A stretch of 63,169 bases of DNA, the filler included, from Collodictyon triciliatum (Eukaryota): NCBI GenBank assembly GCA_043381765.1. It is 7 parts of 7 records of this genome, joined end to end, with 100 filler letters (N's around TTAATTAATTAA, not from the genome) between each part and the next. Parts side by side here need not be neighbours in the genome. Positions count along the whole stretch, not along the records: positions 33,214 to 44,170 come from JBHJMP010002520.1; 6 more parts are not named here. One strand, given 5' to 3'. This document shows positions 367-63,125 of the stretch, in pieces. How positions within the stretch are numbered: position 1 is the first letter of the stretch; every line of letters starts with the position of its first letter. The position numbers were made by a program, and so were the translations under genes. Below the pieces are notes generated by a model that was not told the origin of the DNA, searched no databases, and saw only the letters and a program-made list of their open reading frames with translations.

Positions 367-3346
<2,980 letters not shown>

Positions 3347-10978: not shown

Positions 10979-11078
10979 NNNNNNNNNNNNNNNNNNNNNN
11001 NNNNNNNNNNNNNNNNNNNNNNTTAATTAATTAANNNNNNNNNNNNNNNNNNNNNNNNNNNNNNNNNNNNNNNNNNNN
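10979..11078. other. Artificial contig spacer (44 N + TTAATTAATTAA + 44 N)
   Basis: Identical 100-nt linker with six-frame stop core, repeated six times in the window. Confidence 0.98.
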
Positions 11079-14099: not shown

Positions 14100-17000
14100 T
14101 TAATCTGTGGGCTGGGTGCGATTGTGATGGTGATGGCCATCACGGCCGTGATGTGTGGGAGACGCGGCGTGGTGCGAAGAGTGCCCGGAGCGCGGGACGC
14201 ATTTTCTCCTTCGATGAGCAAGAAGAGACAGCGCAGATGCGGCGTCGAGCAGAAGCTCTTCCTCTTCCGGGATAAAATTGAGCAGGTAATGAATCGGGAT
14301 GGACGGCGTCGCGTGACGAGCTTGTGATTGTGATATTGGTTGTGATGCCGGATGCGGATGCGGTTGCGCTTGAATACTCTGCCCTTGGCCGGGGATTTGT
14401 GTTTGCGTCTGTGATTGCGGTTGTGATTGTGGTTGGGATGGCTTGGGGCTGTCACCGTGCGGATTGGACTGCACAGCCGATGCTGACGAGTTTGAAGAGT
14501 CTGAGTTTCTGGCAGGGTGGCGCGTGCCTGTCTCGTTTGGCGGGGACAAAGAACTCGGGCTGTCATCTGGAGAGAACGAAGGGTTCAGAATCGAGGATAT
14601 GATGGAGTTTCCGTTCTGCAGCGTGTGGTGCTTCACGCGGAATCCTGCATTGTGCGAGGAGGTTGTGTTTGATGTGGATGGTCTCTTGTGTGCAGGATAG
14701 CGCGGGTTCATGTGCTCGGCCGTATCGCTGGCACTGGAGTGTGCTTTGGGGATAGAAGGCGAGTGTGCCACAGATGAGAGCGACCGAGTGCCCTTCAGCC
14801 CTTGTGCAAGGAAAACCTTGGCCTCGGACTCCAAAGCCGTGTCATGCTCGGTTCCGAGCGTGTCTGCGTTTGTATTTGAGTGAGGGGTAGGATGTGAGTT
14901 TGAGTTTGAGTTTGAGTTTGAGTTTGAGTTTGTTTGTGTGTCGTCTCGGCTGGGCGGCGGCGTTTCCTTGGGATCCGAGTCCACCAAGCATGAATCACGG
15001 CTATTAGTTCCGCCGGCTGTTTCCACTTTTTGAGTCGCTGATGATGAAACTGCTGCTGCTGCTGTTTGTTGTTCGCGTCGGTGCTCATCAGACTTTGACG
15101 CACGCAGAGTTTTCCCAGGACATGACTCGGCCAAGTCGGACTTTTGTGAGGGAAGCTTTGCCCCTGATGTGCTACTTTGTCCATTGGAGGATGACAGGTC
15201 GCGGTCGGGCTCGGATTCTGTTGTCCGGTGCATGTGGGCACTTGAATCAGGGCTTCCATCCCCAAGTGAGTCTGGGAACTGATGGCCTTCGAATCCATCC
15301 AGAGCGCGTTTTCCTTTGATTGGGGCGATTGCTTGGGCCTGAGAAGATAGAGATATAGAAGGGAAACTACTAGATTGGTTCTGCTGCTTGACTCGGGACG
15401 ACGCGGAGGAAATAGATGGAGAGGATGACGAGGAGATAAGTGCAGATATGGCTCCATCAGCCTCCGATGATTGGATTGGGTGGTGATGATGATGGGTATG
15501 GTGATGACGTCGCACGTGCGCTTTATCAGGTGGGGCTGAAAATGTATCTGGGTTTCCTGAGGACGAATTGCAAATGGATTCGAGGGGATGTTCTATGGAA
15601 TCGGCGTGTGACAACATACTACTGCCTGGAGTGTTCCTGTCCCAGTGACCAACAGTGAATTTGGCATCTCTCCCGGGTTTATTGGACGCTAAGGCTGATG
15701 CTTCTCTTGTGGATTGAGAAGGGCTTTGTTTGTTGAGGGATACAGTGCTGCTTGATTCCCTCGCATGTGGGGGTTCATCCTCCATCTCGTGGTTTGAGTA
15801 TTCCGCCTCGCTGACAGACTCATCCTCCTCTTCCATATTAGATGCATTGCTTGACTCCCTTTCAGAATCATGCACACCTCTTTTGGGTCGGCTTGGGTCA
15901 TTTTTAAGATCAGTCTCCATGTTTGGCCTCTTTTCATGATTCGAATCGTCCCCTTTACTTCCACTTTCGCTTCCGTTGCGACGAATATGGTCCGTTATAT
16001 GAACGATTCTCGATGCTCGATTGCTTGTAATAGAAATGGCTTCTTGAAGGATGGATTCCTTTGGATCTGTTCTTGCTTTTTTGCTTCGGTTAGTTATTGG
16101 TGACGAGGTCTCTGCAGGTTTCCCATTTCCAACGAAAGCTGTACATTCTTGAAAGAAACGCATATAATCAATACCATGAGGATAAATATTTTCTTTTTTA
16201 GTAATGAAGTGCTTACATTTTTGATGATGCAACATGGCTCAATATAAAGATAATTATAAATAGGTTGTCTTTCAGGTAAACAAATAAACAAATAAATACA
16301 AAATTGAAACCTGGTAAAATCTCAGGTTTCATTAGAAACCCAAATTTATAGACACCTTCGAGTAGACGTTCTTCAAACTGGCGATACTTGATTGCAAATT
16401 GCCGCAGACTTTCTGGCATATACTTCTTTATCACAATCTTCAGCTGATACCAACCTGCGTCCCAGCACTTTTTTGAATAAAACAAAAGCATTTAATAGAA
16501 AAACGGATATATTTTTATTTTTACAGAAAATCATTGAAAAATGAATGAGTATTTTGATAGGAGTTTGTAGATCGTACATGTAGGTGATAAGATGACTGAT
16601 TTCGGTGGAGCTCGGCTCTAAATACCATCGAGTCTCGCACAAGATTACGACCGAGCTCTAATATCTCGGTTGCATCAGGAGATAGTTGAGATTTCTAAGC
16701 AATAATTTGTTAATAAATCAAAATTCTACGCTTGGGGAATTGTAAAAAGAATTTATATTAAAACATGACCTGCTAATTTGAATGCATGTTATTTTATTTC
16801 AAAAAATTACGAATGAAGGGGAATTAATTTTTGAAAGATTGATAATTACATACGTTTAAATAGTTGAATGTATATCTGTCAAGAAGAAGGCTATAGGGCA
16901 GCGGAGATGAACCGGATGCAGTCTTCTTGTGGGCTTCAAGAGCAATCTTTGCCGTATCTGTGAGATGAGAGACATCCAAGGAACCATCTTGAGTTATGGA

Positions 17001-19937
17001 AATTCCTTCAGCATTCAAATCCTCCTTGATTAATCTTTCAGAATCCTTTTCCATTTCCCCAAAATTGTGCAGCTTTGCAAGGTGATTCATCTCCTTTCGG
17101 CTCATGAAAAAGAAAGAGTTAATTATATTCTCCATGAGTCCTTCTTTACCGTCATCCGGATTTGATATAAGGTCACGGAGGCTACTTTGATTGGACTTGT
17201 CCTTTATTAAAGGCAAGAAAAAAGGAATTAGATAAATGAACGGATAAACAAAATTATTGCAGATGAAATAATCGACCATTCAATATCGATGATGCGCCAC
17301 TGAGCAGACATATCATATGCAATTCTAATGCGATTATATAAAAAAAACCTGAAACAAACAATAAACCACGCAGTCCTTTGACCAGAGCTCAAAGTCTGGA
17401 GCCAGGACATCTGGAACCGAGTATTCATCCGAGTAGTTTAACCAAGTGCGAGTCACAGAGCGGCGGGCCAGAAAGAGGGCTGCAACGCGGAGTAGGTTTT
17501 CACGGACGATGGGGACGCCATGGCCAGACTTGAATGCGGCCGAGTAGAGGCCAACAAGTTCGAGATTATGCTGGACGCTATTGGCGTTGTTGTGGAAGTA
17601 GCCGAGGGCAGAAAGGGGCAAGCGGGTGGGGCCAGGGCAGACTTTGAGGCCGGAAATGACATTGAGGCGTGGAGACATTAATGGCAGGCCTTTTGTAGCA
17701 GAGCGAACCCAATCGGATGCTGTGCCACTTTGGAAGACAAGCGGTTTGTGCCCGATGCAGACAGAGATGCCACGAGATTCCTGGACAAAGACGCGCAGGC
17801 GCAGGACAATCGGCTCTGTTTGTGATGACGAGGACGAGGACGATGACTGTGATGACGATGACTGTGATGATGAGCGGCTCCGCCAGATAGTGAAGTTTGT
17901 CGACGCGACGGTCTTTGGATCGGCAGGGGCAGCGGACGGGAACGTAAATCCATCCACGAATGCCCAGTGCCGGAAAAAGAATCGGCGGAAGGGTGCCACG
18001 TTCGGCCCGGACAGGAAGTTTGCCGGTGCAAAGACTGCAACAAGCATCTCTGCACTCTGCAGCGTACTGAGTCGGAAGAGAATCTGCGCACTCGGCTGAT
18101 ACGCCGCTTTGCCGAGTCCAAGCTGCTCCATTTCCCGTCGGCATGCTGTGTACATCGCAGCCGCCCCACTCGGACCTCGCCCGCTGCTTCTGGCCCCGCG
18201 TCCTTGCGTGCCCATGCTGGCGGTTCCATTCGCATTACCAGCACTAATATCAATACCTAGACTGTTGCCGTTTCTATTCGAATTCGCACCGCCAATAGAG
18301 TTAAGATTGACATTGACACTGATGCTCCCGTTTGGATTTCCAGCGCCGCTGCCCGGCTGCACAAGTGAGCCGACGACAAGGACCGGCCGACTTTTGTCCC
18401 GGGTGTTCAGCGCTCGGCCGAGGGACTCTGGCAGGCTCTGCCGCACGCGGTCCAGACTGTCCGCTGCCAAGTCCACTGGGAATCGATGAGTTCCTGTGGC
18501 ATTCTCGGAATGCATGAGTGACTCGGCGACATCAGACACAAAGAGCGGCGTTGCTGTGGCCAGACTTGTGCCTCCGCTGATGTCCCATATAGTGTGCCGC
18601 ACGGCCCAATCATCTCCGAGGCTCTGTGCAAGAAGCTGCTCCCCTGTCTGCAGCCATACTGCTGCTCGCCGCGTCTCGTTCGCCCGTCGGCGTGTGCTTG
18701 TGGAAGTGGTTCGTGGTTGTGATTGTGACTGTGATTGTGACTGTGATTGTGATTGTGACTGTGATTGTGGTTGGGGTAGATGAGGCTGTGACTTTGGTTG
18801 CAAATGCGCTTGTTGCTGTGCTTGAATATGTGTTTGTGGCAGATGTGGCATCATTTGTGGTTGTAAATGCGCTTGTTGCGACAGTTGTGGCTGTGGCATT
18901 GAAACTCCCATGGGTGACTTTGGGACAAAGGGAAAAGGCTGTGTCGGCGGTGTTGGGAAGCAGACGGACGGGTGTGGACTGCGCTGTGTGGCCGCCGCCA
19001 GAAACTGCGCAAAGTGGGCGTGGGCTTGTGTTAGGACAGCAATTTCGCGGCCGTTCGGGAAGAGAAGACGGCTAAGGTGGTCTGTTTATCGATGTTTATT
19101 TATTAGAATATTTGTACGTTTTATATGTTCTTTGTTCAGCGGCAGAGGAAAAAAAAGAAAACAAAAAAAGAAAACAAAAAAAGAAAACAAAAAAAGAAAA
19201 CAAAAAACAAAAAAAAACAAACAAACAAACAAAAAACACAAAAAAACAAAAAGAAAAAACTATAATTTCATTATTTTTACTAACAAATCATGTCAGAATG
19301 TTATTATAAAAAATAACAGAGTGTCTGGGCCATGAAAAAGATATTACAGTTTGGATCTGGAAGGTGCGTGGGAAGCGGTGTCTGCAAGTATTGGTTATTT
19401 GCGACAAAGTGGAAGAGTTGGACTGCCTCGTTTTGGTCAAGAGGGAAGTCGCACGGGACTGCGTTGGTGCGCCACCATTGAAAAAGCGTGGTCCACTACG
19501 TTCCAAAGAAAGTTGTATTTATATAATGCAGAATATTATGAAGAGAACAGGAAACATATTTTTGTTTTATTTGTGTTCACACACACGCATGAGTCTACCT
19601 GTGCGTTCATTCCTATTGGTTGGTGAGGAGGATAAGAGGAGGAGCCCAGTGAAGCGGTAGCTTTGCTCTTAGCCTCTCTTTCTCTAAAAAAAAAAAAAAA
19701 AAAGCATGCGCACCCATTCAGCTCTTGTGTTAGAATCCTTCTTGTCTGGTGTCGTTTTTTTTTTTCTTTCAACTCGATAGGTTTGAGTTGTTTGCGTGCG
19801 AATGCGATTGGCTTTGTTCTCTTTGCTTCTTGGTTGCATGCGAGCGAATAGTGCGATGCTGAACTTATACCTCCGGGATATAACCACGAAGGACGTTGTT
19901 GCAAGCACAAAACAACCAGAAACACACAGGAAGCCAT
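14100..19937 (-). CDS. Large multi-exon protein: degenerate prokaryotic R-M/N6-adenine methyltransferase-like core plus long low-complexity regions
   Basis: Phase-compatible GT-AG exons join WTTLFQWW..NNQYLQ, LFPNGREIAV, SLGDDWAVRHTIWDISGG, LGLGKAAYQPSAQILFRL, FLSGPNVAPFRRFF, TNFTIW, LGYFHNNANSV, FLARRSVTRTWLNYSDEYSVP, DCVVYCLFQDKSNQSSLR, LSPDATEILE, YHLHCWDAGWYQLK and VYKFGFL to the ~700-aa S/H/Q-rich ORF ending at 14100. The start codon is uncertain (19937, or a later ATG near 19615). Confidence 0.72.
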
Positions 19938-22053: not shown

Positions 22054-22153
22054 NNNNNNNNNNNNNNNNNNNNNNNNNNNNNNNNNNNNNNNNNNNNTTA
22101 ATTAATTAANNNNNNNNNNNNNNNNNNNNNNNNNNNNNNNNNNNNNNNNNNNN
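22054..22153. other. Artificial contig spacer
   Basis: N-TTAATTAATTAA-N linker. Confidence 0.98.
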
Positions 22154-24734: not shown

Positions 24735-25203
24735 CGCAGAAAACAAGGACGCGGTTCTCCTCTGCTTTCTCCTCTCTGTGTGCTCCGGGAATAAGAGGTG
24801 GAAATGAGTGGCAAAAAGTGACATAAAAAAAAAAAGAGAATGATTGGGTGAAGGCAAGCCAGACATCAAAATAGGTCATAGACATGTGAAGAGTGGCACA
24901 AAACATAAACTCTTCTGCAATAACGGCACGCGAGCAAGAGTCATACTCATCAACATAACGAAAATATAAATCTGGCATTTCTCTGGAATTGCATTCAATC
25001 ACTTTTGTTGCGAGAATTGATGAAAGAAAACATAGAGATAATGAATAGATATGCCATTTGATTGCATTCTGGCAAAGATTAAATCTCTGGACAATCTACA
25101 TCTCGTTTATCATGTGTTATTCAAATCAACCACATTTCCAAACATACATTAAAAGGAAAACAATACACCCCTTTTTTTTTTTAAAAAAAAAAAAGCTAGT
25201 AAT

Positions 25204-30937
<5,734 letters not shown>

Positions 30938-33113: not shown

Positions 33114-33213
33114 NNNNNNNNNNNNNNNNNNNNNNNNNNNNNNNNNNNNNNNNNNNNTTAATTAATTAANNNNNNNNNNNNNNNNNNNNNNNNNNNNNNN
33201 NNNNNNNNNNNNN
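33114..33213. other. Artificial contig spacer
   Basis: N-TTAATTAATTAA-N linker. Confidence 0.98.
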
Positions 33214-33915
33214 TAGTGTCGAGAATAGTTGCAACCTTCCAGAGTTGCGACTACCAAGGGCTATGACTTCAATTTGATCAGAGGCCAAATTCTCCCTGGA
33301 GCGAAAGTGCACGCGACTACCCTGCTCTCCTTTCCGATCAGATTCCTTTATATTCGTTCATTCTATTCGGCTCCAAATTCAATACCCTTGACTTATATAT
33401 GTCTAATATTTAACAGAGAACATATAACAGCCGGCAAACCAGCATAACTTCTTCAGCATAGGCATCAGCGGAACCGGCAAGAATATTGTAAATTACTTTT
33501 TGCAGACTCTGAAGAAATATACCTTTATTTTTTGAATCAGCAACTACAGTATAAGTCAAAATTTTGGAAACATAAATAATGAATTATCCATTCTAATAGT
33601 CTGAAGACATTCGTCCGTTCAACTCGACTCCTTGAAACTCAAAATCATACTTTAATCAACCAGATTCAGTTATGACACATGTTTGGGAATATCTCTACAG
33701 GTATTTTTATGGCTAAATAAACGGTAGATTCTGATACTTTGCTATCTTAGTTAATTTTTACCCTAACATTTCATAAGGCTTAAATGATATTGAATAATAT
33801 ATGAATTAAAAATAACTAAGTTGGAAAAGTCCATCCTGAGTTAATTTCAACAATATTAAAGGGGGTTTTATTGAAACGAAAAAATCTATACGTAATTAAT
33901 AAAACAATTTTCGAC

Positions 33916-34098
33916 TTTTTTTTATTAATCCATTCCATTTTGTGCAGGACGGTGGAGATGTTGGCTTTGGTTCGCTGGCCATCGTTTGCATGGACGCTAC
34001 TTGGTTGCCGGGTGGCATAGAAGTAATCGGTATTCAGGAATTACATCCTGCAGTTTGGCCTGTAGCCTGGGTCTTGTGCTTGGATAAGAAAAACCAGG
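33916..34098 (-). mobile_element. Short polyA-tailed retro-fragment, longest copy (~180 bp)
   Basis: Ends ..CCAAAGCCAACATCTCCACCGTCCTGCACAAAATGGAATGGATTAATAAAAAAA. It is flanked by an imperfect direct repeat (GAGTTGAAAAATTTGT / AAGTCGAAAATTGT) and shares its 3' end with three other loci. Confidence 0.7.
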
Positions 34099-35994
34099 AC
34101 AAATTTTTCAACTCTTAAATTTTGATTATTTCTCAGGATGAACTCAAAAAAACCATTTATCATAGCACTTCGCGAACTTTCTGAAAGGCCATCTGTCATT
34201 CCATTTCTTCGTACAAGGAACTCTGGTGCTCTCATTTTTTTGGTGATAAACAAGTTATACAGTAAGTTGACCAAGCCAAATCATAGCATCGAAATTTATT
34301 TATTTCAAGGTTTCAAGTTCCATTAATCTAATTTTTATAATAATTAAAGAAACTCATAATTAAAACTTTGAGGGCATTACAAAGAATAGTGCAATCTTTG
34401 GGCCAGATTGACCAAGATTCTGATACTAAAAAAACATGATTCTTGTCTAATTTTACCTTCTAATTCTCCATAATTGAAAAGCACGAAAAATTTTAAATTT
34501 TTATCACAGAAAATTCGTCACATGTTTGATATTCAACGATAGGAAAACCAAATACGCAAATTTTAATTACATGTGTTTATAAAGCCTAATTTTTAGCAGA
34601 TTATCAATCAAACTTCATTCTTAATTTAGGTCTCGTCTTGATAAATGGTTCAATCTTACAACTTCATGGAATAGCTGAAAAATCGTATTGCTTTATTCAA
34701 TCTACCATATTTAGCATTATTTATTCATCTTCAATCGGAAAATGTTCAAACTTAAGTCATGGGCAAAACTCAGATACAGTTGCAAATGAAAGGGACAAAA
34801 GACAAAATCCGTGGGAAAGGGAACTGTTTCGATCTACTACTTGGAGGAGGGGGGAGGGGTGGATCGGCGGCTCCTAGTTTTCCCGATGGTCTGAAGTAAA
34901 GGTCTAAGAACGTACGGTGGGGGTGTTGGGTTGTGTTGTGTGTGGAAGTAAGTATGTCTTTGTCCAGTCATTCACGACCAAAAAATAAATAAAATAATAA
35001 TATTCGTTGTAAATTTTTGTAATCAAAAGTCGTGTATCCTTTTTTTGCGGTAAGGAGGCTTAATCTTATTCGAAAACATTGCCTATTTAACATATAAAAT
35101 ACAGCATGTATAAAGTCGAATATTTTAATTAAAAAATACTTCAGTTTTAAAACTATTACTAATAATGATAGAACAAAATCTATAAAATTAAGAATTATCA
35201 TCCAAGTCTGTCCAACCTAGGTATTTCATTATTCAGTTGATATATTTATTATGGTATGAAACATGGAATCAATATTTATAATATTTATAATTGTCTCAGC
35301 TATATATTTTCTAATGAAGTTAAATCAATATGAATGGTCTGCCTACAGAATCTGCATCGCTATGTCGTCGTTTATTTTTCAATAATCGTATTACGTATCG
35401 CCTTATGAATATTTAATCTACAAAAAAATCATTAAACTACTTATCTACTAGAGAAGCTTAGTTATCTGCATACTCTTGGTATCCGTATTTTAAATTCCGT
35501 TTTAATACAATCGATAGATAGACAATTGCATCAAATATGAATTTAAAAAACAACTAACCAACTAATGAACCATTATTATGTCCAAATCGAAAAACACATA
35601 CCATGTCCCCGCTAAAAATCAGTTTGCCGCTGAATGATACACCACCCCTCCCATTGAACGACCTGCAATCTTTTGTCCACAGCTTCACGCCCATACCCCT
35701 CACCTTACTAGACCTTGTTCGTTTCTCCAAGTGAAATGATTTGTAAGTTTATCGCTCAATAAATAAACCAATACAATAGACAATAGTTGTTATATCATCT
35801 AAATTAGTTCAATATTCTCCCTTGGTTATTTAGATGTCGATTTATCAAATCCAACAAACCCACCCCTCCCCCTTCCAATTCCAAATGAATCAGAGGTAAG
35901 AATGTCCTTATCTGCTATGTGTTCTGTGTTGACCCGACTAACAAAGAATATGGTAAATGGCTCACGCCCTTTTCATTTTCTATGATTACTATCA

Positions 35995-36108
35995 TATACA
36001 TACATACATACATACATACATACATACATACATACATACATACATACATACATACATACATACATACATACATACATACATACATACATACATACATACA
36101 TACATACA
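35995..36108. repeat. (TACA)n microsatellite
   Basis: Visible perfect repeat. Confidence 0.95.
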
Positions 36109-38659
36109 GTGTGTCTTCTTATCATCGCTTTTTTTAATATTCTATCATATCATTAATTATCTGATATTGTTCGTTTATTATATTTGTTCAAAATATGGTC
36201 GATTACTAGAATTAAATATGATTATAATTTCATTTATTTCTTTATTATTCAACAATTTTCAACTAGGAACATTACCTCTTTATTGACGCACAAGTAAAAC
36301 ACTTGAATAGATAAATCGTGAATTATAAATTATCTTATATAATGATTGTACTTTTAATTTAATTGATATTCCGAACTTTGGTGCCTTTCTTATCCATGAA
36401 TAATTCTAATTAATATCAAAATTATAGTAATACTTAAGTATAATAGAGTTATTTTATTCAGAGTTCCAAAGAAACGTTATGGCACATAGTCTACAAATTT
36501 TCCATTAAATACATGATTTGTATATGGTATATCACGATAAATAGTAAAAATAATGAATCACTTATTTATTAGTAAGCTTTGGTTTTGATTAATAAAGCTT
36601 TTTTTTAGTTCAATGAATTATTTTAATATGGTTATTGTGACAAATATGTCATTTTAAGAGAGATTAATTAGATATCACTATTTCAGAGCCTTATGATAAA
36701 GAATTATATATTAGTTGTTATGAAATAGAAAATACATACATCATAAAACTAAAATTGATTGTTTATTAGTAAAAATGTTGGAGATGACATCCTGTGCTCA
36801 CAAAATAACCTCTGGTATTTCAATCAGTTAATGAAGTTTTACCGAATATTAGGATGTGATTCATCGCTTGGGCCCTATTTTGTACACAGATGGTTATACT
36901 TCCAGGGCATCATATTTTAAATATAATCGATCATGTAGTTAACTGAATGAAAATATATTTAATTAAATTGAAACATATTTTTTAATTTCCTAGCAGAGGT
37001 GATCGAAAAACATGTTCCGAAGAAAATCATTCTGTTTGCTCCTGTATGATGTTCATTCGATCTAGTCGAGCGAACAGGATTTATTTTACAATTGAATCAG
37101 TATAAGCTATCTAAAAATATTACTATTGTTAACAGGTATGATTATCTTATTAATTATAATATATGGCTTATACGGAAACAATAAAACGATTTGAATAAGT
37201 AAATTTCTCGATTTATAAAAAACACATTTTGATAGTCAATAATTAATAATAGCCTGATTAATATTTCCTGAAATATCTTGATATTTTTAGTTCTTCATTT
37301 TGAAGAATATTGATACAGATTTTCAATAAATAAAGCAATTTTTCAAAGTATACACTGGTTCTGGTAATGAATATTTTATGAGATTATATTTTAATTATAT
37401 TCATCTGATCAAGAATCTATTAATAATTTCTCTTGAATTAATTATGTTCAATATTATTCAATTCTAATGTTATTCCCATAAATCTCTCACGATTAATCCA
37501 TATGACAATAGATAAGTAATTAAATTTTATGTCATTAGCCACTTCTTACTTTTAAATATTATATAATCCGCTCATCCAATTTTAGAATGCTGGGAAAACA
37601 AGGATATATGTTTGAAGTTTGATATATTGATCAGTTAAAATAAATATAGATATTTTGTAAATTAAAAAGCCTGTATAAAGAATACGTTATTAAATAACCA
37701 ATTTAATAATTATTTCTTAACTTTATCAAATATTATGTACGAAATTCATGGCAAAAATGAAATCAAATACTTGACATGTTTTTCCGTGAGAATATATTTT
37801 AATCATTATTTTGTTGTATACTTAATTTCTTGGTTCCCATAACATATAACTGTTCTTTTCATATTGAACTCACTTATAATCGTGTAATTTTTTTGATAAA
37901 TAATTAATTTTATATTTTTAATTGATAGGTTTGATTTATTGATTTTAAAGTGTATGTAATTGATTAAAAAAGTCTTGTGTGAAATCGTCGGCTATTGTAA
38001 TTACCACAATTTATTGATTTATAGCTAAGACAAACCAAAACTATTGGTCTCAAACTGAAACATATATTATCCTGTCACTTAAAATTAATTTTTTATTTGA
38101 TTTATTCTCTTCTTGTTTACTATTCATAAGGCTATCTTGCACGAGTCATATATTTTTTATTGCCTTATGTCGTATATTGATTATTTGTATATAAGACATG
38201 ATTAATCAAATAATTTATCCAGATTTTTTCTTTAACTACTTCATCAAAATCTACATATAATTGATAGGAAAATGACTTTGTTAAAAATATAAAATTGGAT
38301 AAACCATTAGTTTTATTAGTCTTTACTTATCAATTTGTGACTAGATATCATTTATTTTGAAAGGGAGATTATGTTCCAATTTTTTATAATTTTCATGAAT
38401 CATCTGATTAAGTCATTATAACATCAAAAAACATAGTCAAAGTTTAACAATTTGTATTAATGAGAGTATTTAAATTTTGAGATTTTATTTACATGAATCT
38501 TATTGAATTTATGCAGATGGTCTATATCTATGTATTTCTGAATCAAAAATAATAATTGAGTGTAATTATTCAATATCATATAAAAACTAATATCTTTGGT
38601 TATAACACCTTGCCATTAATTGTATTTTAACCTTTGAACACATGTCGTATTAATTTAGA

Positions 38660-41600
38660 ATGAGATTGAACTCAAAGTCTCTTGCAGCCGTGTTGCTGTT
38701 GAGTGAGTAATTAATGATATTGTTTTAATTTTATTGACTTCAAATTACATAGAATTTTAAATAACATATTTTTTTTAGGATTGATGCTCCACTACCAATT
38801 TATTAGAGTTGAAGGACAAGGTAGTTTGATTCGCACATTGACTGGTCATACTGATGGCGTTTGGAGTGTTGCTATTACTCCTGATGGTACAAAAATTGTT
38901 TCTGGAAGTAGTTATCATGTAAGTTATGATAATACAATCAAAATCTGGAAACTTTCTGATGGAATTTTGATTCGCACATTGACTGGTCATACTGATTGGG
39001 TCCTCAGTGTTGCTATTACTCCTGATGGTTCAAAAATTGTTTCTGGAGGCAGTGGTGGAACAATCAAAATTTGGAATCTTTCTGATGGAGCTTTGATTCT
39101 TGCATTGACTGGTCATGCTGGTGAGGTTTGGAGTGTTGCTATTACTCCGGATGGCTCAAAAATTGTCTCTGGAAGTAGGGATAAACCAATCAAAATCTGG
39201 AATATTTCTAATGGAGCTTTGATTCGTGTATTGACCGGTCATACTGGTGGTGTTGGTGTTATGACTGTCGCTATTACTCCTGATGGCTCAAAAATTGTTT
39301 CTGGAAGTGGTGATTGTACAATCAAAATCTGGAATCTTTCCGACGGAGCTTTGGTTCGTACATTGACCGGTCATACTGGTGGTGTTGGTGTTAAGACTGT
39401 CGCTATCACTCCTGATGCATCAAAAATTGTTTCTGGAAGCTGGGATGGTACAATCAAAATATGGAATCTTTCCGACGGAGCTTTGATTCATGTATTGACC
39501 GGTCATACTGGTGGTGTTGGTGTTAAGACTGTCGCTATTACTCCTGATGGCTCAAAAATTGTTTCTGGAAGTGGTGATTATTATAGTGGAGAAATCAAAA
39601 TATGGAATTTTTCAGATGGAGCTTTGATTCACACATTGAGTGGTCATACTAGTGGTGTTTCCAGTGTTTCTGTCACTCCTGATGGCTCAAAAATTGTTTC
39701 TGGTGGAGAAAGGTTAGATAAAACAATCAAAATCTGGGGGCTTTGTGTTGCTGGTCAGTTTTATGATTCAGTTTCAAAGTCTTGTAAAATATGCTCATTC
39801 GGGAGCTACAGTGCTGGTGGAATGTCATCTTGTTCTTTATGCCCTGCCGGTACATACAATCCATCAACAGGCTCTACAAGTGTTGATGCTTGTATTTCAT
39901 GTGCAGCTGGAACATACAATCCATCCACTGGTCAAGCAACCTGTCTTTCATGTGCAGCTGGTACATACAATCCATATCTTGGTCAAAAAACCTGTCTTCC
40001 ATGTGCAGCTGGAACATACAATCCATCAACTGGTTCTACAAGTGTTAGTGCCTGCATTTTTTGTGAGGAAGGAAATTATAACAACAAAACTGGCCAGATA
40101 TCATGCCATAATTGCGAACCAGGAACATATAGTCCTTCAAAAGGACAGCCATTATGTTTTGACTGCCCATTAGGTTTCTACAATCAAGAATCAGGAAAAA
40201 CGTTTTGCACACCATGCGGCCCAGGAACGTATTCGAATTCGACAAAAGGGAAATCTTGTGGAAAATGTCCAGCCGGGACTTTTAATCCAAATGTTGCGTC
40301 AACTAGCATAAGCAGCTGTCAATCGTGTCCAAAAGGGAAATTTTCTTCAAAATCAGGTGAATCAATATGCGAAATTTGTCAATCTGGTTCTTACAACCCC
40401 TACTTTGGACAGACAGGATGCGCTAATTGCACTGCCGGAACGTACAATCCGAGATTTGGTTCAACAAGTAACAAATCATGTGTGCAATGCCCAGCAGGAA
40501 CTTTTGGTAATGAACAAAGAGATGAATGTTTATCATGCCCAGCTGGTACATTCAACAATCAAACTGGCTCATTCAATCAATCATCATGCATTTCGTGTCC
40601 AAATGGAAGCTACAGCACAGAAAGAAGCACATCATGCAGTCTATGTTCATCAGGATTCTATCAAAAAGAAGGCATCACAAAAGATTCGAAATCATGCTAC
40701 GCTTGTCCAAAAGGAACATTCAACTTGAACTCCGGCTCATATGGAAACAAATCATGCATGGAATGTCCACAAGGTACTTGGAATGATAGAGATGGCCAAG
40801 CATCGTGCACATCATGCCCAGCTGGTACATTCAATAATAAAACTGGCTCATTCAATGAATCATCATGCATTTCGTGTCCATACGGAAGCTACAGCTCAGA
40901 AAGAAGCTCATCATGCAGTCTATGCTCATCAGGATTCTATCAAAAAGAAGGTGTCACAAAAGACTCGGAATCATGCTATGCTTGTACAAAAGGCTCATTC
41001 AATTCAAACTCCGGCTCATATGGAAACAAATCATGCATGGAATGTCCACAAGGCACTTGGGATGATAGAGATGGTCAGGCATCATGCACATCATGCCCAG
41101 CTGGTACATTCAATGGTAAAACTGGCTCATTTAATCAATCATCATGCATTTCATGTCAAAATGGAAGCTACAGCTCAGAAAGAAGCGCATCATGCAGCTT
41201 ATGCTTATCAGGATTCTATCAAAAAGAAGGAATCTCAAAAGACTCAAAATCATGCTTTGCTTGTCCAAAAGGTACATTCAACACGAAATCTGGCTCATAT
41301 GGAAATACATCGTGTGTTGAATGTCCACAAGGTACTTGGAACGATAGAGATGGTCAAGTATCATGCACATTATGTCCAGCCGGTACATTCAATAATAAAA
41401 CTGGCTCATTTAATCAATTATCATGCATTTCATGCCCAAATGGAAGCTACAGCTCAGAAAGGAGCTCATCATGCAGCTTATGCTTATCAGGATTTTATCA
41501 AAAAGAAGACATTATAAAAGACTCACAATCATGCCATGCTTGTCCAAAAGGTACATTCAACTCAAAATCCGGTTCATATGGAAACAAATCATGTATCGAA

Positions 41601-44170
41601 TGTCCACTAGGTACTTGGAATGATAGAGACGGTCAAGCATCATGCACATCATGTCCAGCTGGTACATATAATGATATAACTGGCTCATTCAATCAATCAT
41701 CTTGTATTTCATGTCCAGACGGAAGCTACAGCTCAGAAAGGAGCTCTTCTTGTAGCTTGTGTTTAGCAGGATTCTACCAAAAAGAAGAAATCACAAAAGA
41801 TTCACAATCATGCTACGCTTGTCCAAAAGGCACCTTTAACTCAAACTCCGGCTCTTATGGAAACGTATCATGTATTGAATGTCCACAAGGCACATGGAGT
41901 GATAGAGATGGTCAAGCATCGTGCACATCATGTCCAGCTGGTACATTCAACAATAAAAATGGTTCAATTTATGAATTATCATGTATCTCATGTCCAAGTG
42001 GAAGCTACAGCACAGAGAGAAGCTCATCATGCAGTCTATGTTCATCAGGATTCTATCAAGAAGAGGGAATCACAAAAGACTCAAAATCATGTTATGCTTG
42101 TCCAAAAGGTACATTCAACACAAACTTCGGCTCATATGGAAACGTATCATGTATTGAATGTCCACAAGGTACTTGGAATGATAGAGATGGTCAAGCATCA
42201 TGCACATCATGTCCCGCTGGTACATTCCACAATAAAACTGGCTCATTCAATCAATCATCTTGTATTTCATGTCCAGACGGAAGCTACAGCTCAGAGAGAA
42301 GTGCTTCATGCAACTCATGCTCACCAGGATTCTATCAAAAAGAAGACATAAAAAAAGACTCAAGCTCATGCTATGCTTGTCCAAAAGGCTCATTCAACTC
42401 AAACTCCGGCTCATATGGAAACAAATCATGCATTGAATGTCCACAAGGTACTTGGAATGATAGAGATGGTCAAGCATCATGCACATCATGTCCAGCTGGT
42501 ACATTCAACAATAAAACTGGCTCATTCAATCAATCATCATGCATTTCATGTCCAAATGGAAGCCACAGCTCAGAGAGAAGTGCTTCATGCAACTCATGCT
42601 CATCAGGATTCTATCAAAATGAAGATATCACAAAAGACTCCAAATCATGCTACGCTTGTCCAAAAGGCTTATTCAACTCAAAATCCGGCTCATATGGAAA
42701 TGCATCATGTATCGAATGTCCACAAGGTACTTGGAATGATAGAGATGGTCAAGCATCATGCACATCATGTCCAGCTGGGACATTCAACAATCAAACTGGC
42801 TCATTCAATCAATCATCATGCATTTCATGTTCAAATGGAAGCTATAGCTCAGAGAGAAGCGCATCATGCACTTTGTGCTCATCAGGATTCTATCAAAAAG
42901 TAGGAATCACAAAAGACTCTAAATCATGCTACGCTTGTCCAAAAGGCACATTCAACTCAATATCCGGCTCATATGGAAACACATCATGCACTGAATGTCC
43001 ACAAGGTACTTGGAATGATAGAGATGGTCAAGCATCATGCACATCATGTCCAGCTGGTACATTCAACAATCAAACTGGTTCATTCAACCAATCATCATGT
43101 ATTTCATGTCCAAAGGGAAGCTACAGCTCAGAAAGAAGCTCATCATGCAGTTTATGCTTATCAGGATTCTATCAAAATGAAGATATCACAAAAGATTTAC
43201 AATCATGCTATGCTTGTCCAAAAGGCACATTCAATCCAATCTCCGGCTCATATGGAGACAAATCATGTATCGAATGTCCACAAGGTACTTGGAATGATAG
43301 AGAGGGTCAAGCATCATGCACATCATGTCCAGCTGGTACATTCAACAATAAAATTGGTTCATTCAACCAATTAATATGCATTTCATGTCCGAATGGAAGC
43401 CACAGCTCAGAAAGAAGCGCATCATGCAGCTTGTGTTTATCAGGATTCTATCAAAAAGAAGGTGTCATAAAAGACTCTAAATCATGCTATGATTGTCCAA
43501 AAGGCACATTCAACTCATACTCCGGCTCATATGGAAACACATCATGCATTGAATGTCCACAAGGTACTTGGAATGATAGAGATGGTCAAGCATCATGCAC
43601 ATCATGTCCAGCTGGTACATTCAACAACAAAACTAGTTCATTCAATCAATCATCATGCATTACATGTCCAAATGGAAGCTACAGCTCAGAGAGAAGTGCT
43701 TCATGCAACTCATGCTCATCAGGATTCTATCAAAAAGAAGATATCACAAAAGACTCACAATCATGCTATGCTTGTCCAAAAGGCACATTCAACTCAAACT
43801 CCGGCTCATATGGAAACACATCATGCATTGAATGTCCACAAGGTACTTGGAATGATAGAGATGGTCAGGCATCATGCACATCGTGTCCAGCTGGTACATT
43901 CAACAATAAAACTGGCTCATTCAATCAATCATCATGCATTTCATGTCCAAATGGAAGCTACAGCTCAGAAAGAAGCTCATCATGCAATTTATGTTCATCA
44001 GGATTTTATCAAAAAGAAGGAGTAATGAAAGACCCAAAATCATGCTATGCTTGTTCAAAAGGCACATTCAACTCAAATTCCGGCTCATATGGAAACAAAT
44101 CATGCATTGAATGTCCACAAGGTACTTGGAATGATATAAATGGTCAAGCATCATGCACATCATGTCCAGC
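38660..44170 (+). CDS. Putative secreted/surface protein: signal peptide, 7 WD40 repeats, Cys-rich (ephrin-receptor-like/GCC2-GCC3-type) repeats; 3'-truncated
   Basis: Exon 1 (38660-38702, MRLNSKSLAAVLLL) splices through a GT-AG intron (38703-38778) in frame into the 1813-codon ORF. Seven LTGH..VAITPDGSKIVSG..TIKIW units are followed by CxxCPAGT(Y/F)N repeats. Confidence 0.88.
40761..44108 (+). repeat. Coding tandem array of 12 complete 279-bp (93-aa, 10-Cys) units, with partial units on both sides
   Basis: GAATGTCCAC(A/T)AGG recurs every 279 nt from 40761 to 44109. Confidence 0.92.
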
Positions 44171-44270
44171 NNNNNNNNNNNNNNNNNNNNNNNNNNNNNN
44201 NNNNNNNNNNNNNNTTAATTAATTAANNNNNNNNNNNNNNNNNNNNNNNNNNNNNNNNNNNNNNNNNNNN
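44171..44270. other. Artificial contig spacer
   Basis: N-TTAATTAATTAA-N linker. Confidence 0.98.
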
Positions 44271-44326
<56 letters not shown>

Positions 44327-44700
44327 AAAAAAACAAAAAAAAAAAAAACCAAAACAAATGAAAAAGAAAAGAGAAGACCATCGCAAACAGCCAATAAGAG
44401 TGCAGGATCGAGACTAACCCGCCTCCTAAAGCCCACAGAAGAGAAAGATTAAACTAGAGAAGGAAAAATCCGCAAAGTAAAACTCCTTTGTGTAAGAAAA
44501 CGTTCGATCCAAACCCTTTGTGTTGATCTGATCGCTTTCTGATGGTCACACACCATGTTTTTTTGCTTCGCATTTTACAGAAAAAAAGCCCAGGGTGTTA
44601 TTCCCAACCTGCCCAAACGTACTATTCAGTATATACATATATTTGTGTGTTTTTGAAGTATTCGCTCCTTACATTTTTTTTTTCTAACATAACATAACAT

Positions 44701-55228: not shown

Positions 55229-55328
55229 NNNNNNNNNNNNNNNNNNNNNNNNNNNNNNNNNNNNNNNNNNNNTTAATTAATTAANNNNNNNNNNNNNNNN
55301 NNNNNNNNNNNNNNNNNNNNNNNNNNNN
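55229..55328. other. Artificial contig spacer
   Basis: N-TTAATTAATTAA-N linker. Confidence 0.98.
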
Positions 55329-59139: not shown

Positions 59140-59239
59140 NNNNNNNNNNNNNNNNNNNNNNNNNNNNNNNNNNNNNNNNNNNNTTAATTAATTAANNNNN
59201 NNNNNNNNNNNNNNNNNNNNNNNNNNNNNNNNNNNNNNN
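59140..59239. other. Artificial contig spacer
   Basis: N-TTAATTAATTAA-N linker. Confidence 0.98.
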
Positions 59240-61217: not shown

Positions 61218-62147
61218 TTAGAAAACTGAAAATCCTTTATTTTTGTATCCGTGGGCGATGTACAACCTCCTATCGGCGCTGAGAGCCACTCCCGTGGGAT
61301 AAGGCAGCCTTATGACGCCCACAGGAGTCAAGTCTCTCGAGTAGCAAGTCACGGTCCCATTCCCAAAGTCGCTGTATATGAAACCTCCGTCAGCCCCACG
61401 AGCCAAGTAGTTTGCGTAGTCAGACTCCTTTGTGATGTCCTTGTGTATCCCGAGCACCTTGCCATCGAGGTCGAACACGTAGAGAAGAGCGGCTCCATAA
61501 GGCGAAACAACTATGCAATCGTCGTCTGTGACTGTAATCCCACACGGACGTATCAACCGATTGGATTCCTCATCGCAGTGAAACGATTTGACGTAGCTCC
61601 CGGTTGGCGAATACTTGACCACACGATTGTTGCCGCTGTCTGTGATGTAGAAGAAGCCGAGAGAGTCGAAGGCGACGTTGAAAGGGCTGCTGAGTTTTTC
61701 TTCGGGGCTTGAATCCGTCATGGATCTTATGAGATTGCCATCCGCGGTAAGTAAGAGCGCGGAGCTGCGACAATACTCCACCACAACGAATCGGGATCCG
61801 TCTGGGGATATGGCCACCCCCCAAGGCCCAGTGATGCTCCGGAGCTCGAGATCATCTACGTTTGATACGCAACGCAGCGAGCGGAGGGTTTCGTCAAAGA
61901 TTTGGACGCCTCTTCCTTCGTTGTCGGCCAAGTAAACCTCTCCATTTATTGGGTCGCAGGAAACCCCCCAGGGTACTCTTAAATCCATCTGGGAAGCTCC
62001 TTTGCAGTTCGGCCCGATTGCAATGCGAGGTTGTTCAAGGAACTCAGTTGGCCACTCTAGGAACGGATGTCCGGTCGAAAGTATTATATATTTTGCGCTG
62101 AGTTCTGATTCCTGTGGCTGTGGCTGTGGCTGTGGTAGAAATGGCAT
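61218..62147 (-). CDS. Stand-alone NHL-repeat beta-propeller protein, intronless, ~309 aa
   Basis: Repeated NHL motifs PWGVSCDP..VYLADNE, PWGVAISPDG, PFNVAFDSLGFFYITDSGNNRVVKY, PCGITV, PTGVALSADRRLYI. The first ATG is at 62147; the frame is open further upstream. Confidence 0.8.
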   Translation of the reverse strand: MPFLPQPQPQPQESELSAKYIILSTGHPFLEWPTEFLEQPRIAIGPNCKGASQMDLRVPWGVSCDPINGEVYLADNEGRGVQIFDETLRSLRCVSNVDDLELRSITGPWGVAISPDGSRFVVVEYCRSSALLLTADGNLIRSMTDSSPEEKLSSPFNVAFDSLGFFYITDSGNNRVVKYSPTGSYVKSFHCDEESNRLIRPCGITVTDDDCIVVSPYGAALLYVFDLDGKVLGIHKDITKESDYANYLARGADGGFIYSDFGNGTVTCYSRDLTPVGVIRLPYPTGVALSADRRLYIAHGYKNKGFSVF

Positions 62148-63125
62148 GGAAAGCAAAGGTCTGATGTGTATTTTTCGAACGACGCCGCTGCCGACGGTGA
62201 TGCTGCAAACATTTACACACCGCGCATACAGTTGAAATCTGCATGTGCCTTTCTTTGATTGCGCCGTTTTTTTCACAAAGATCGCGTGGGTTTCGGCGAT
62301 GGAGAGCTTCTTCAAGTTTTCAAGTCGTACCCTGGTCAGCTGATGGCAATAGAAAATGAGAGTTATCAAGGTCTTCAAAAAAGAAAAAAAAGAGAGAGTG
62401 TGTGTATATTTTATTGTTGCTTGTGCTCCGTTTCTTTCGTTTCATTCTACCAATTTCATTGATTTGATTGCAGTGATGCTTGACAGTTGATGGAGAAATA
62501 TTGGTAATTCTCTTGAATCGAATGGTTGATTTGAAAAAAAAAAAAAAAGGTCTGTAGATTTCAAAGAGAGTATACTTTAATACGTATGAAATCACCTCTG
62601 CAAGATTCAAGTCCATTATGGATTGGCACCACTCATGAGATTCTTCAAATTTAGACTTTATTTTCGCATCTATAGACTCGTTCGTAGTTGATATCTAAAG
62701 TCGATTACAACCATAATATTAACAAACTGAGAAAATCATAAAGTATATATATATAAAACCTCCCAACAACAACAACCAAACACCCCCCCCCCCCCCCCCC
62801 CAGAATATGGGTTTATTCAGAAATAATTCAAAGGGAGTTTGGTGTTCTTTTTGTTTCAGTTTTATCACCAGCGCTTGTGCGTTAAATTGGAAGGAGAAAA
62901 ATAAAAACATCCTAGCTTTCAGTGAAACAATAACAATAATAATAACATTTATATCAACAGTAATACAAGGAATACTACGAAGAAGAATAGGGATTTCAAA
63001 TAAAATAATATATAGTAAAAGTAGATAAATAACAAATCCCCTTAATCCACCCTGCCTGCTAAAAGCTATCCTCTCATAAACACTCGCTCTGCCTCCCTTT
63101 AAGGCCGCACACGTAAAGAAGACAA

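Follow-up and report, generated by a model that had tools for sequence, protein, structure and literature searches.

A predicted secreted WD40 propeller on a long cysteine-rich stalk in Collodictyon triciliatum

RESULTS

A locus of the AT-rich eukaryote Collodictyon triciliatum (assembly GCA_043381765.1) probably encodes the start of a giant secretory-pathway glycoprotein in which a WD40 head is carried on a long cysteine-rich stalk, with a role in adhesion or recognition. The locus lies on the plus strand of a composite window of 63,169 nucleotides (the whole stretch of DNA that was analyzed, assembled from seven pieces joined by filler), within the piece from JBHJMP010002520.1. With the predicted splicing, a 43-nt exon 1 is joined in frame to a 1,796-codon open frame running to position 44170, and the spliced translation comprises the first 1,811 residues of a larger protein. 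The tandem part of the stalk is still open in frame where the piece ends; the joint of the composite window (44171 to 44270; N44 - TTAATTAATTAA - N44, with the N run from 44171) cuts the gene at 44170, and the C terminus, with any transmembrane (TM) or GPI signal, therefore lies beyond the sequence at hand. Elsewhere in the composite window we observed PTHB1/BBS9, ZPR1, and NHL fragments, on pieces that are not necessarily contiguous with the locus.

Exon 1 (38660 to 38702, 14 codons plus 1 nt) supplies the ATG, the n-region of a leader (R2, K6), and the larger part of that leader's hydrophobic core. It is followed by an intron predicted from sequence (38703 to 38778; 76 nt, phase 1, GC content of 15.8%) that begins with GTGAGT and ends in a T run and TAG; on inspection, this is the sole GT/AG pair at this spot that restores the frame. 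Without splicing, the ATG at 38660 opens a mini-ORF of 16 codons, and the first ATG of the long frame is at 38784, 5 nt into exon 2. The start of exon 2 (38779 to 38816) encodes the remainder of the leader up to a putative cleavage site; its residues are disordered in the structural model (pLDDT of <50, residues 1 to 11 of P0002).

The leader was judged by a hydropathy heuristic and the −3/−1 rule. It combines a positively charged n-region with a hydrophobic core (maximum 9-mer Kyte-Doolittle value of 2.49, from residue 10) and has V at −3 and G at −1 of the putative cleavage site; 27 residues precede the repeats, and strand 1 of the propeller begins 4 residues past that site in the model and spliced translation. 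Two points are atypical, namely, an Arg (R15) inside the hydrophobic core and a long gap between the core and the proposed cleavage site. The heuristic has low specificity: it accepts 88 of 148 stalk relatives that start with M, but also 93 of 285 M-starting WD40-type controls (33%). An initial annotation of this DNA had proposed that a short first exon supplies a hydrophobic leader, and this fits: the splice restores the frame, and the heuristic and the −3/−1 rule agree on a putative leader.

The WD40 propeller (38817 to 39749) follows as seven repeat units of 42 to 47 amino acids, each with a GH anchor; the unit alignment places them at 38817 to 38957, 38958 to 39083, 39084 to 39209, 39210 to 39341, 39342 to 39473, 39474 to 39614, and 39615 to 39749. 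Pfam PF00400 matches the encoded protein (P0001) in seven stretches (E value of 5.6e-74; 241.9 bits against a cutoff of 27), and the stabilizing D-H-S/T-W hydrogen-bond tetrad, scored by eye on the unit alignment, is complete in six of the seven units, with G in place of D in unit 2. Pairwise identity between units ranges from 61 to 86% at the amino acid level (mean, 71.6%) and from 71 to 92% at the nucleotide level, and Tandem Repeats Finder reports a period of 132 with 5.9 copies and 82% matches. Units 4 to 6 are 84 to 86% identical in amino acids and 89 to 92% in nucleotides and have a 2-residue insertion in common, which indicates recent unit duplication.

An alignment-based AlphaFold (AF2) model (pLDDT of 93.8, pTM of 0.91) has 28 strands in a closed seven-blade propeller, in which the N terminus is predicted to supply strand D of blade 7 as a velcro closure; a single-sequence AlphaFold model (pLDDT of 65.3, Foldseek TM of ≤0.26) was dropped in its favor. 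Foldseek aligned the model to 7big_A with TM values of 0.86/0.97 and an rmsd of 1.2 Å, and solved seven-blade WD40 propellers gave TM values of 0.86 to 0.97; phmmer matched 2ymu_A with an E value of 8.5e-220. The propeller contains a single Cys and no disulfides. Together, the Pfam stretches, the GH anchors, and the model strands bear out the initial count of exactly seven WD40 repeats, while the description of these repeats as nearly identical was overstated given the pairwise range above. As modeled, the propeller is an ordinary WD40 fold, and the gene structure, the domain order, the fold, and the positions of the variable loops are established at the level of sequence and model.

The blades differ mainly in two loops. 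The D-A loops span 6 to 8 residues and the B-C loops 3 to 9, while the A-B loops (7/7) and C-D loops (6/6), on the bottom face, all have 5 residues and hardly differ in sequence. The D-A and B-C loops account for every difference in length between blades and for most differences in sequence. These loops are the two variable sites that had been noticed in the sequence, which are real, and when the variable residues are mapped on the structural model, all fall on the top face. By blade, the hotspot residues are W, L, W, M, K, K, S at R1; G, W, E, G, G, G, G at R1-2; and Y, S, R, G, W, G, L at D-1. According to the available part of PMC3419727, the D-A and B-C positions are general WD40 top-face hotspots. 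The blade-to-blade pattern at these positions is just as evident in a consensus of 46 kinase-WD40 relatives, most of them cyanobacterial, and is therefore generic to this WD40 subfamily rather than diagnostic of HET-E/NWD repeats. Where strand C ends on the bottom face, five of the seven blades have an N-x-S sequon, versus 27 of 325 equivalent sites in the same 46 relatives, an excess that may be the mere product of one unit's duplication.

The stalk starts a few residues past the last propeller strand (residues 316 to 320), without a linker. Its nontandem part (39750 to 40531) consists of Ephrin_rec_like/TNFR_ELAPOR1-like modules (Pfam PF07699 and PF23091; the best PF23091 stretch covers residues 327 to 358 of P0001), and its tandem part (40532 to 44170) holds 13.0 copies of a 279-nt (93-amino-acid) unit with 88% matches by Tandem Repeats Finder. 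PF07699 (Ephrin_rec_like, GCC2_GCC3) matches in 35 stretches (E value of 3.4e-230), a lower bound given that the gene is cut at 44170. The junction between propeller and stalk is spanned by one uninterrupted frame, in a region flanked by DNA of 24% GC. Over its 1,476 residues, the stalk contains 161 Cys and 44 N-x-S/T N-glycosylation sequons. These 4.4 kb of cysteine-rich repeats in the propeller's frame went unmentioned in the initial annotation.

An exhaustive library search with a 260-amino-acid stalk query returned 21,272 relatives at an E value of ≤0.001, the best 150 of which are 33 to 50% identical to it. A hydrophobic 19-mer lies within the last 150 residues in 51 of 162 stalk relatives versus 3 of 319 WD40-type matches. 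Judged from their sequences, the stalk relatives look like surface proteins.

No protein combining WD40 repeats with this stalk was found among 487 retrieved relatives, and the architecture is thus without independent confirmation. With HMMs built from the gene, 337 proteins divided into 319 of WD40 type and 18 of stalk type, with none matching both, and the WD40 model matched 0 of the best 150 of the 21,272 stalk matches. Three word-index homologue searches, which were swamped by multipropeller WD40 proteins, gave no match covering both halves among the matches listed (120 per search); the ESM Atlas returned WD40-only clusters alone, with scores of ≤0.84, which is chance level. Among literature titles on Reticulomyxa plus WD40 or GCC2_GCC3/Ephrin_rec_like/PF07699, none concerned a WD40-stalk fusion, and in phrase searches "extracellular WD40" turned up in just two papers, one on CRINKLY4 (a BLIP-II/UVR8-like propeller) and the other a review on cyanobacteria. 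Pfam found no NACHT or NB-ARC domain in P0001, in which just the 27-residue leader lies ahead of the repeats, and no paralogue was found in the composite window. By its predicted domains, a WD40 head on an Ephrin_rec_like stalk is a new domain combination of a familiar kind.

DISCUSSION

We propose that the leader is cleaved and that a single closed seven-blade WD40 propeller would directly follow it, running without a linker into a rod of at least 35 disulfide-rich Ephrin_rec_like modules that includes the 13 tandem 93-amino-acid units. In the model, strand C of blade 7 is the last before the chain exits the propeller on the bottom face, so that the top face would be directed away from the stalk. 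That face, with its variable D-A and B-C loops, would be the ligand-binding surface of a head that a rigid stalk keeps at a distance from the cell, as in an adhesion or recognition protein; the blades may differ because they jointly form one asymmetric binding site, and not through hypervariability of the gene. The consensus-like, highly repetitive WD40 type is known as unusually stable, and the stability of this disulfide-free form may permit function outside the cell. Secretion, orientation on the stalk, top-face binding, and membrane anchoring are what we infer from this arrangement. An extracellular location is strongly suggested mainly by the cysteines and sequons of the stalk; the initial annotation had likewise placed the propeller outside the cell, and its proposal gains from the at least 35 Ephrin_rec_like modules in the same frame, which it had not used.

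Other readings of the locus were weighed. Canonical GH-WD propellers, and WD40 domains at large, are normally intracellular scaffolds, and with an in-frame ATG 5 nt into exon 2 and a leader made atypical by R15 in its core, exon 1 could be unused and translation could start at 38784, giving a cytosolic WD40-stalk protein. We consider this very unlikely: 161 Cys in regular Ephrin_rec_like/TNFR-like modules would require an oxidizing compartment, the mini-ORF stops exactly at a consensus donor whose acceptor restores the frame, and leaders as well as C-terminal anchors occur in stalk relatives. It is still harder to believe that the gene is an artifact, either two genes, one for WD40 and one for the stalk, fused by repeat misassembly or a decaying pseudogene. 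Both halves are tandem repeats, hence prone to misassembly, and the evidence of a single contig leaves an assembly chimera some probability. The combination is absent from the 487 retrieved relatives, and RSCU values of the two halves correlate poorly (r = 0.13 to 0.30), a comparison that is uninformative because repeat arrays are dominated by the few codons that each unit amplifies. Against an artifact, the 1,796 codons contain no stop, the junction lies in nonrepetitive sequence (39750 to 40531), and GC3 is similar in the two halves (0.23 in the propeller and 0.24 to 0.28 in the stalk). The propeller might instead be extracellular without being a recognition head, acting as a stable cap or an oligomerization or matrix-assembly module for the stalk, in a protein that is perhaps shed rather than anchored. 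It has no known ligand, the C terminus lies beyond 44170, and the conserved surface of the CRINKLY4 propeller touches its own cysteine-rich domain, as stated in the available part of bioRxiv 10.1101/2020.08.10.245050. This, too, seems quite improbable, since the hotspot residues (W, L, W, M, K, K, W, E, Y, R, W, L) belong to types that are likely interaction hotspots according to Wu et al. (PMC3419727, in the portion available), and the sequons are on the opposite face.

The initial annotation had read the propeller as a variable receptor, that is, an NLR-type sensor moved to the cell surface, with repeat shuffling, positive selection, and a variable repertoire for prey, pathogens, or self. 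The blades do differ at the four positions, those of x-V-x behind GH and of x-D-x within the B-C turn, that, in the accessible part of PMC1805685, are under diversifying selection in HET-E/NWD repeats. Units 4 to 6 indicate recent unit duplication, and the relatives of the propeller include NACHT, NB-ARC, and TIR proteins (Reticulomyxa filosa NB-ARC, 50 to 53% identity; a TIR-WD40 protein, 59%). Crude dN/dS between units is 1.6 to 1.7 for the loops against 0.35 for the scaffold, values that are descriptive and, for the loops, circular because the columns were picked post hoc for varying. The reading as a variable receptor gained no support, however, as blade-to-blade differences at these positions also occur in cytosolic relatives, including the consensus of mostly cyanobacterial kinase-WD40 proteins described above, and internal identity is well under the "up to 100%" given for NWD repeats in the consulted part of PMC1805685. 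Moreover, loop insertions of 2 to 5 residues fit fixed structural differentiation of one binding site, NACHT/NB-ARC is absent, and no paralogue was found in the window or among the 487 database relatives. We therefore regard such a receptor as unlikely; on present evidence, the protein is probably not an immune-like variable receptor. The sequence does not discriminate between an NLR and a kinase-linked or other WD40 of the subfamily as the ancestor. It is also rather unlikely that an NLR-like WD40 sensor was exapted in this protist as the tip of a surface receptor in a so far unsampled family that diversifies its top-face loops by duplication, insertion, and selection; were this true, the family would parallel, outside the cell, the HET-E/NWD recognition repertoire of fungi.

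We favor a secreted head-on-stalk protein. If it is truly exported, a disulfide-free, consensus-like WD40 propeller is usable as an extracellular binding head, and the isolated head together with its top-face partner would make a simple, testable system.

The propeller has its repeat family and fold in common with the highly repetitive (HR) WD40 propellers of Nostoc punctiforme (2YMU), the WRAP-T designs (7BIE/7BIG), and Thermomonospora PkwA (5YZV), and cyanobacterial Ser/Thr-kinase-WD40 proteins are 45 to 59% identical to it. HR WD40s are defined by an internal repeat identity of ≥0.7 (Hu et al. 2017, PMC5587647); the mean of 71.6% found here, which lies at that threshold, was obtained with our own unit boundaries and not with the WDSP procedure of that paper. 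In prokaryotes, fungi, and protists, HR WD40s are C-terminal in cytosolic kinases, STAND NTPases, and TIR proteins, whereas the propeller described here is N-terminal, after a leader and before a cysteine-rich stalk, and has loop insertions and N-x-S sequons. HET-E/NWD proteins of Podospora likewise combine high internal identity with variation that flanks a conserved V and D on the top face, as far as the accessible part of PMC1805685 describes them, with repeats up to 100% identical versus 61 to 86% here. Unlike HET-E/NWD NLRs, the Collodictyon protein has no NACHT or effector domain, changes its loop lengths, and is predicted to be extracellular.

The ectodomain of the receptor kinase CRINKLY4 (ACR4/PpCR4) has the order predicted here, with a signal peptide, a seven-blade propeller, and an adjoining TNFR-like cysteine-rich domain, and is N-glycosylated. 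Each blade of its BLIP-II/UVR8-like propeller has one disulfide, the N-terminal strand is buried, and a single cysteine-rich domain of ~90 amino acids follows (bioRxiv 10.1101/2020.08.10.245050, in the part available). In contrast, the propeller here is a canonical GH-WD (PF00400) one without disulfides and is followed by at least 35 modules; features of a CRINKLY4-type propeller were absent, with one Cys in the whole propeller and canonical WD40 propellers as the best Foldseek matches. Four bacterial metagenomic proteins (P0009, P0019, P0020, and P0066) have canonical WD40 repeats that are 56% identical and stand directly after a leader-like hydrophobic N terminus; judged by eye from their sequences, they are apparently secreted, extracellular canonical WD40 proteins. 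In P0009, Pfam finds 13 stretches of WD40 and, behind them, 4 of CARDB. Proteins of this type differ from the locus in being prokaryotic, in having multiple propellers, and in carrying CARDB (scanned in P0009) instead of an Ephrin_rec_like stalk.

On the side of the stalk, 7 of the 18 stalk matches (P0157, P0160, P0184, P0203, P0204, P0207, and P0216) are uncharacterized database proteins with an RCC1-type propeller on an Ephrin_rec_like stalk. Their stalks are 35 to 38% identical to the one described here by BLASTP (42% over matched stretches for P0184), and in all seven the best RCC1-like stretch is N terminal of the best Ephrin_rec_like stretch. P0157, P0160, P0203, and P0216 all have hydrophobic N-terminal leaders; three of these four end in a hydrophobic tail and the fourth in a TM-like segment with a short tail. 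The heads of the RCC1-stalk proteins are PF00415/PF25390 and not WD40, and none matches the WD40 model built from this gene. If the WD40 head is truly exported, the Ephrin_rec_like stalk of protist surface proteins would take different heads, RCC1-type elsewhere and WD40 here.

A seven-blade WD40 propeller

The initial annotation described 38660..39740 as exactly seven near-identical WD40 repeats. The Pfam search agrees on the number (seven WD40 stretches; E = 5.6e-74), but "near-identical" is too strong: when cut at the GH anchors, the seven units (42 to 47 residues each) are 61 to 86% identical in protein (mean, 71.6%) and 71 to 92% identical in DNA. Units 4 to 6 are the most alike (protein, 84 to 86%; DNA, 89 to 92%) and have a two-residue insertion in common. 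The mean internal identity is far above the 10 to 20% given for ordinary WD40 proteins in the available text of PMC1805685 and, with our own unit boundaries, lies at the threshold of 0.7 that Hu et al. are reported to use for the "highly repetitive" WD40 proteins of prokaryotes, fungi, and protists (PMC5587647, in excerpt).

By sequence, the top solved relative is the repetitive propeller 2YMU of Nostoc punctiforme (E = 8.5e-220), followed by designed WRAP-T propellers, PkwA, Apaf-1, and WDR5. A single-sequence AlphaFold model was discarded (pLDDT, 65.3; Foldseek TM, ≤0.26). The model built from an alignment of 46 relatives (pLDDT, 93.8; pTM, 0.91) has 28 strands, superposes on the seven-blade WD40 structure 7big_A with TM scores of 0.86/0.97 and an rmsd of 1.2 Å, and compares with 5yzv and WDR5 at a TM of ~0.88. 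Strand D of its last blade is supplied by the first strand of the modeled chain (P0002, residues 15 to 20); the propeller is therefore complete and velcro-closed. It contains one cysteine in all and no disulfides.

A spliced first exon and a putative leader

Without splicing, the ATG at 38660 (+) opens 16 codons and then meets a stop. Exon 1 ends exactly on GTGAGT (donor, 38703), and an acceptor 76 bases downstream, a T-run plus TAG ending at 38778, restores the frame. The downstream open reading frame continues without a stop to 44170 (standard code); read from 38781 it comprises 1,796 residues (P0001), with its first ATG at 38784. The predicted spliced N terminus has a charged n-region (R2 and K6) and a hydrophobic core (9-mer Kyte-Doolittle maximum, 2.49, in the window from residue 10), with V at −3 and G at −1 relative to residue 28, a putative cleavage site by the −3/−1 rule. 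The propeller starts four residues past this site, and the model shows the rest of the leader as disordered. For the leader exon proposed in the initial annotation, the splice joins in frame and the hydropathy fits, but R15 inside the hydrophobic core and the long stretch from the core to the proposed cleavage site are weak points. A leader encoded by the spliced exon is plausible.

A cysteine-rich stalk follows the propeller

Residue 322, two residues beyond the last propeller strand (316 to 320), is a cysteine, and the first TNFR_ELAPOR1-like Pfam match begins at residue 327. Over the remainder of the piece, Pfam assigns 35 stretches to Ephrin_rec_like (PF07699, formerly GCC2_GCC3; E = 3.4e-230), together with weaker NCD3G and TNFR-like matches. 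The last 3.6 kb (40532-44170) form a tandem array of 13.0 copies of a 279-nucleotide (93-amino-acid) unit with 88% matches; each unit covers several Ephrin_rec_like modules, and the array, which is young and possibly length polymorphic, has not ended where the piece stops. Over its 1,476 residues the stalk has 161 cysteines, along with 44 N-x-S/T sequons. Since an array of such modules requires an oxidizing compartment, the stalk, ahead of the leader alone, is the chief argument for an extracellular propeller; absent from the initial annotation, it extends the observation made there, which is itself confirmed.

As strand C crosses the propeller from top to bottom, the chain exits blade 7 on the bottom face, a topology that would attach the stalk opposite the variable face. 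The bottom face also bears N-x-S sequons: five of seven blades have one where strand C ends, compared with 27 of 325 equivalent [I/L]-W sites in the 46 relatives; this excess is only suggestive because the units are themselves duplicates. Propeller and stalk have similar GC3 values (0.23 and 0.24 to 0.28, respectively), which speaks against recent acquisition of the head from a foreign source; the RSCU correlation between the two (r = 0.13 to 0.30) is uninformative for repeat arrays.

Surroundings of the gene

The window's 63,169 bases are seven pieces joined by linkers of the form N44-TTAATTAATTAA-N44 (10979-11078, 22054-22153, 33114-33213, 44171-44270, 55229-55328, and 59140-59239) and not a single locus; adjacent pieces are possibly not neighbors in the genome, and features are truncated at piece ends. 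The gene lies in the piece 33214-44170 (10,957 bases), to which all statements on its context refer, and is cut by the linker at 44170. Upstream (33214-38659), all open frames are of ≤109 codons (standard code), GC falls to 24%, and a perfect (ATAC)28 microsatellite lies 2.5 kb from the gene (35996-36108). The piece beyond the linker opens with ~80 bases of almost pure A (44271-44350). Two long minus-strand frames, of 712 codons (14100-16238) and 583 codons (17334-19085), are located in a stretch with a GC content of 42 to 52%, far above the remainder of the window, and neither has a Pfam match. Pfam also identifies, on separate pieces, a frame of NHL repeats, another propeller type (61218-62441, minus strand), a C-terminal fragment of the cilium protein PTHB1/BBS9 (25149-25616, minus strand), and a ZPR1 jelly-roll fragment (2578-3195, plus strand). 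These fragments suggest a eukaryote with cilia or flagella.

Relatives of the head and the stalk

Three word-index searches and an exhaustive search with 260 stalk residues retrieved 487 distinct proteins. Among the matches listed, the closest propeller relatives are 55 to 59% identical, and the relatives include Ser/Thr-kinase-WD40 proteins of cyanobacteria, a TIR-WD40 protein (P0132), bacterial and basidiomycete NACHT, NB-ARC, and AAA proteins, and an NB-ARC protein of Reticulomyxa filosa (50 to 53%). Stalk relatives (best 150 of 21,272) reach 7,926 residues in length; the closest are just 33 to 50% identical, so that no close paralogue is found in the libraries searched. Of HMMs built from the gene's own repeats, the WD40 model matched 319 of 337 retrieved proteins and the stalk model 18; none of the 337 matched both, and the WD40 model matched none of the 150 stalk relatives (best 150 of 21,272).

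Variable positions lie on the top face

Mapping the model strands onto the seven units assigned the loops. All seven A-B loops (TPDGS-like) and all six C-D loops (LSDGA-like) have five residues; nearly every substitution falls in the D-A loops (6 to 8 residues) and B-C loops (3 to 9 residues), which form the top face in standard WD40 topology. On the model, the variable sites cluster on this one face, as the initial annotation would have it. At the top-face hotspots that the available text of Wu et al. (PMC3419727) places at R1 and R1-2 of (V/L/I)-R1-R2-(V/L/I), at the start of strand a, and at D-1, preceding the tetrad Asp, the blades carry W, L, W, M, K, K, and S (R1); G, W, E, G, G, G, and G (R1-2); and, by eye from the unit alignment, Y, S, R, G, W, G, and L (D-1).

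The initial annotation took this variation for that of an NLR-style diversifying sensor. In Podospora HET-E/NWD proteins, the codons under positive selection are the two on either side of the conserved V of the D-A loop and the two on either side of the conserved D of the B-C turn (PMC1805685), and the variable positions here are the same V- and D-flanking pairs. The consensus of the 46 relatives, many of them cyanobacterial kinase-WD40 proteins, also has "x" at these positions (GHxxxVxSV and SGSxDxT), so the pattern is generic for this WD40 subfamily, and the blades of any one propeller must differ at top-face positions to form an asymmetric binding site. Between-unit dN/dS (Nei-Gojobori) is 0.35 in 32 scaffold columns and 1.6 to 1.7 in 18 loop columns, a descriptive value only, as the columns were picked because they vary. 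NWD repeats belong to a ten-gene family, with identities of up to 100% and varying repeat number (PMC1805685); the repeats here are less alike, and insertions of 2 to 5 residues add to the differences between their loops. A second copy of the gene is absent from the window (0 HSPs outside the gene), and Pfam finds no NACHT or NB-ARC domain in P0001, up to the piece end at 44170. The relatives do not set an NLR ancestor apart from any other ancestor within this subfamily. A diversifying receptor family appears quite unlikely. The proposed location and variable face are supported; diversification and NLR origin are not.

A probable propeller-headed surface protein

The reading that we favor, with somewhat better than even confidence, is that the gene encodes a giant secretory-pathway glycoprotein in which a rigid, disulfide-rich stalk would hold an N-terminal WD40 propeller at its distal end, with a ligand predicted to bind the propeller's aromatic and basic top face. 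Given this picture, an extracellular propeller is probable. Hu et al. report higher stability for the consensus-like repetitive WD40 class (PMC5587647), and designed propellers and a thermostable domain are among the structures closest to the model (Foldseek); it is reasonable that such stability could explain the survival of a disulfide-free propeller outside the cell.

Exported canonical WD40 proteins probably exist in bacteria. Four metagenomic bacterial proteins of ~2,500 amino acids (P0009, P0019, P0020, and P0066; 56% identical) have a leader-like hydrophobic segment directly before the WD40 repeats and C-terminal D-x-D-G-type repeats, dockerin-like by eye, and are apparently exported; a Pfam scan of one of them, P0009, gives 13 WD40 stretches and then four CARDB stretches. 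A literature phrase search for "extracellular/secreted/periplasmic WD40" returned only two papers, the preprint on CRINKLY4 and a review on cyanobacteria.

Among the 18 stalk-type hits, 7 uncharacterized proteins (P0160, P0203, P0207, P0216, P0157, P0184, and P0204) contain RCC1 repeats, and in all 7 the best RCC1-like stretch is N terminal to the best Ephrin_rec_like stretch. All four whose ends were examined (P0157, P0160, P0203, and P0216) begin with a hydrophobic leader. The C terminus of P0160, P0203, and P0216 is a hydrophobic tail that by eye resembles a GPI-anchor signal, and that of P0157 is a transmembrane-like segment with a short charged tail. The P0216 cluster has 274 member sequences, and P0184 additionally carries a subtilase and a P-domain. 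A hydrophobic 19-mer occurs in the last 150 residues of 51 of 162 stalk relatives versus 3 of 319 WD40-type hits. Together, the RCC1-stalk proteins and these C-terminal segments indicate that a membrane-anchored propeller on an Ephrin_rec_like stalk is a recurring design; the present protein has the same stalk type with a WD40 rather than an RCC1 head. The nearest published analogue is the CRINKLY4 ectodomain, described in a preprint (bioRxiv 10.1101/2020.08.10.245050) as a seven-blade, BLIP-II/UVR8-like propeller followed by a TNFR-like cysteine-rich domain, with a disulfide in each blade that the preprint's authors interpret as an adaptation to the extracellular environment. The gene represents a new combination of domains in an already known class, the propeller-headed, cysteine-rich surface protein.
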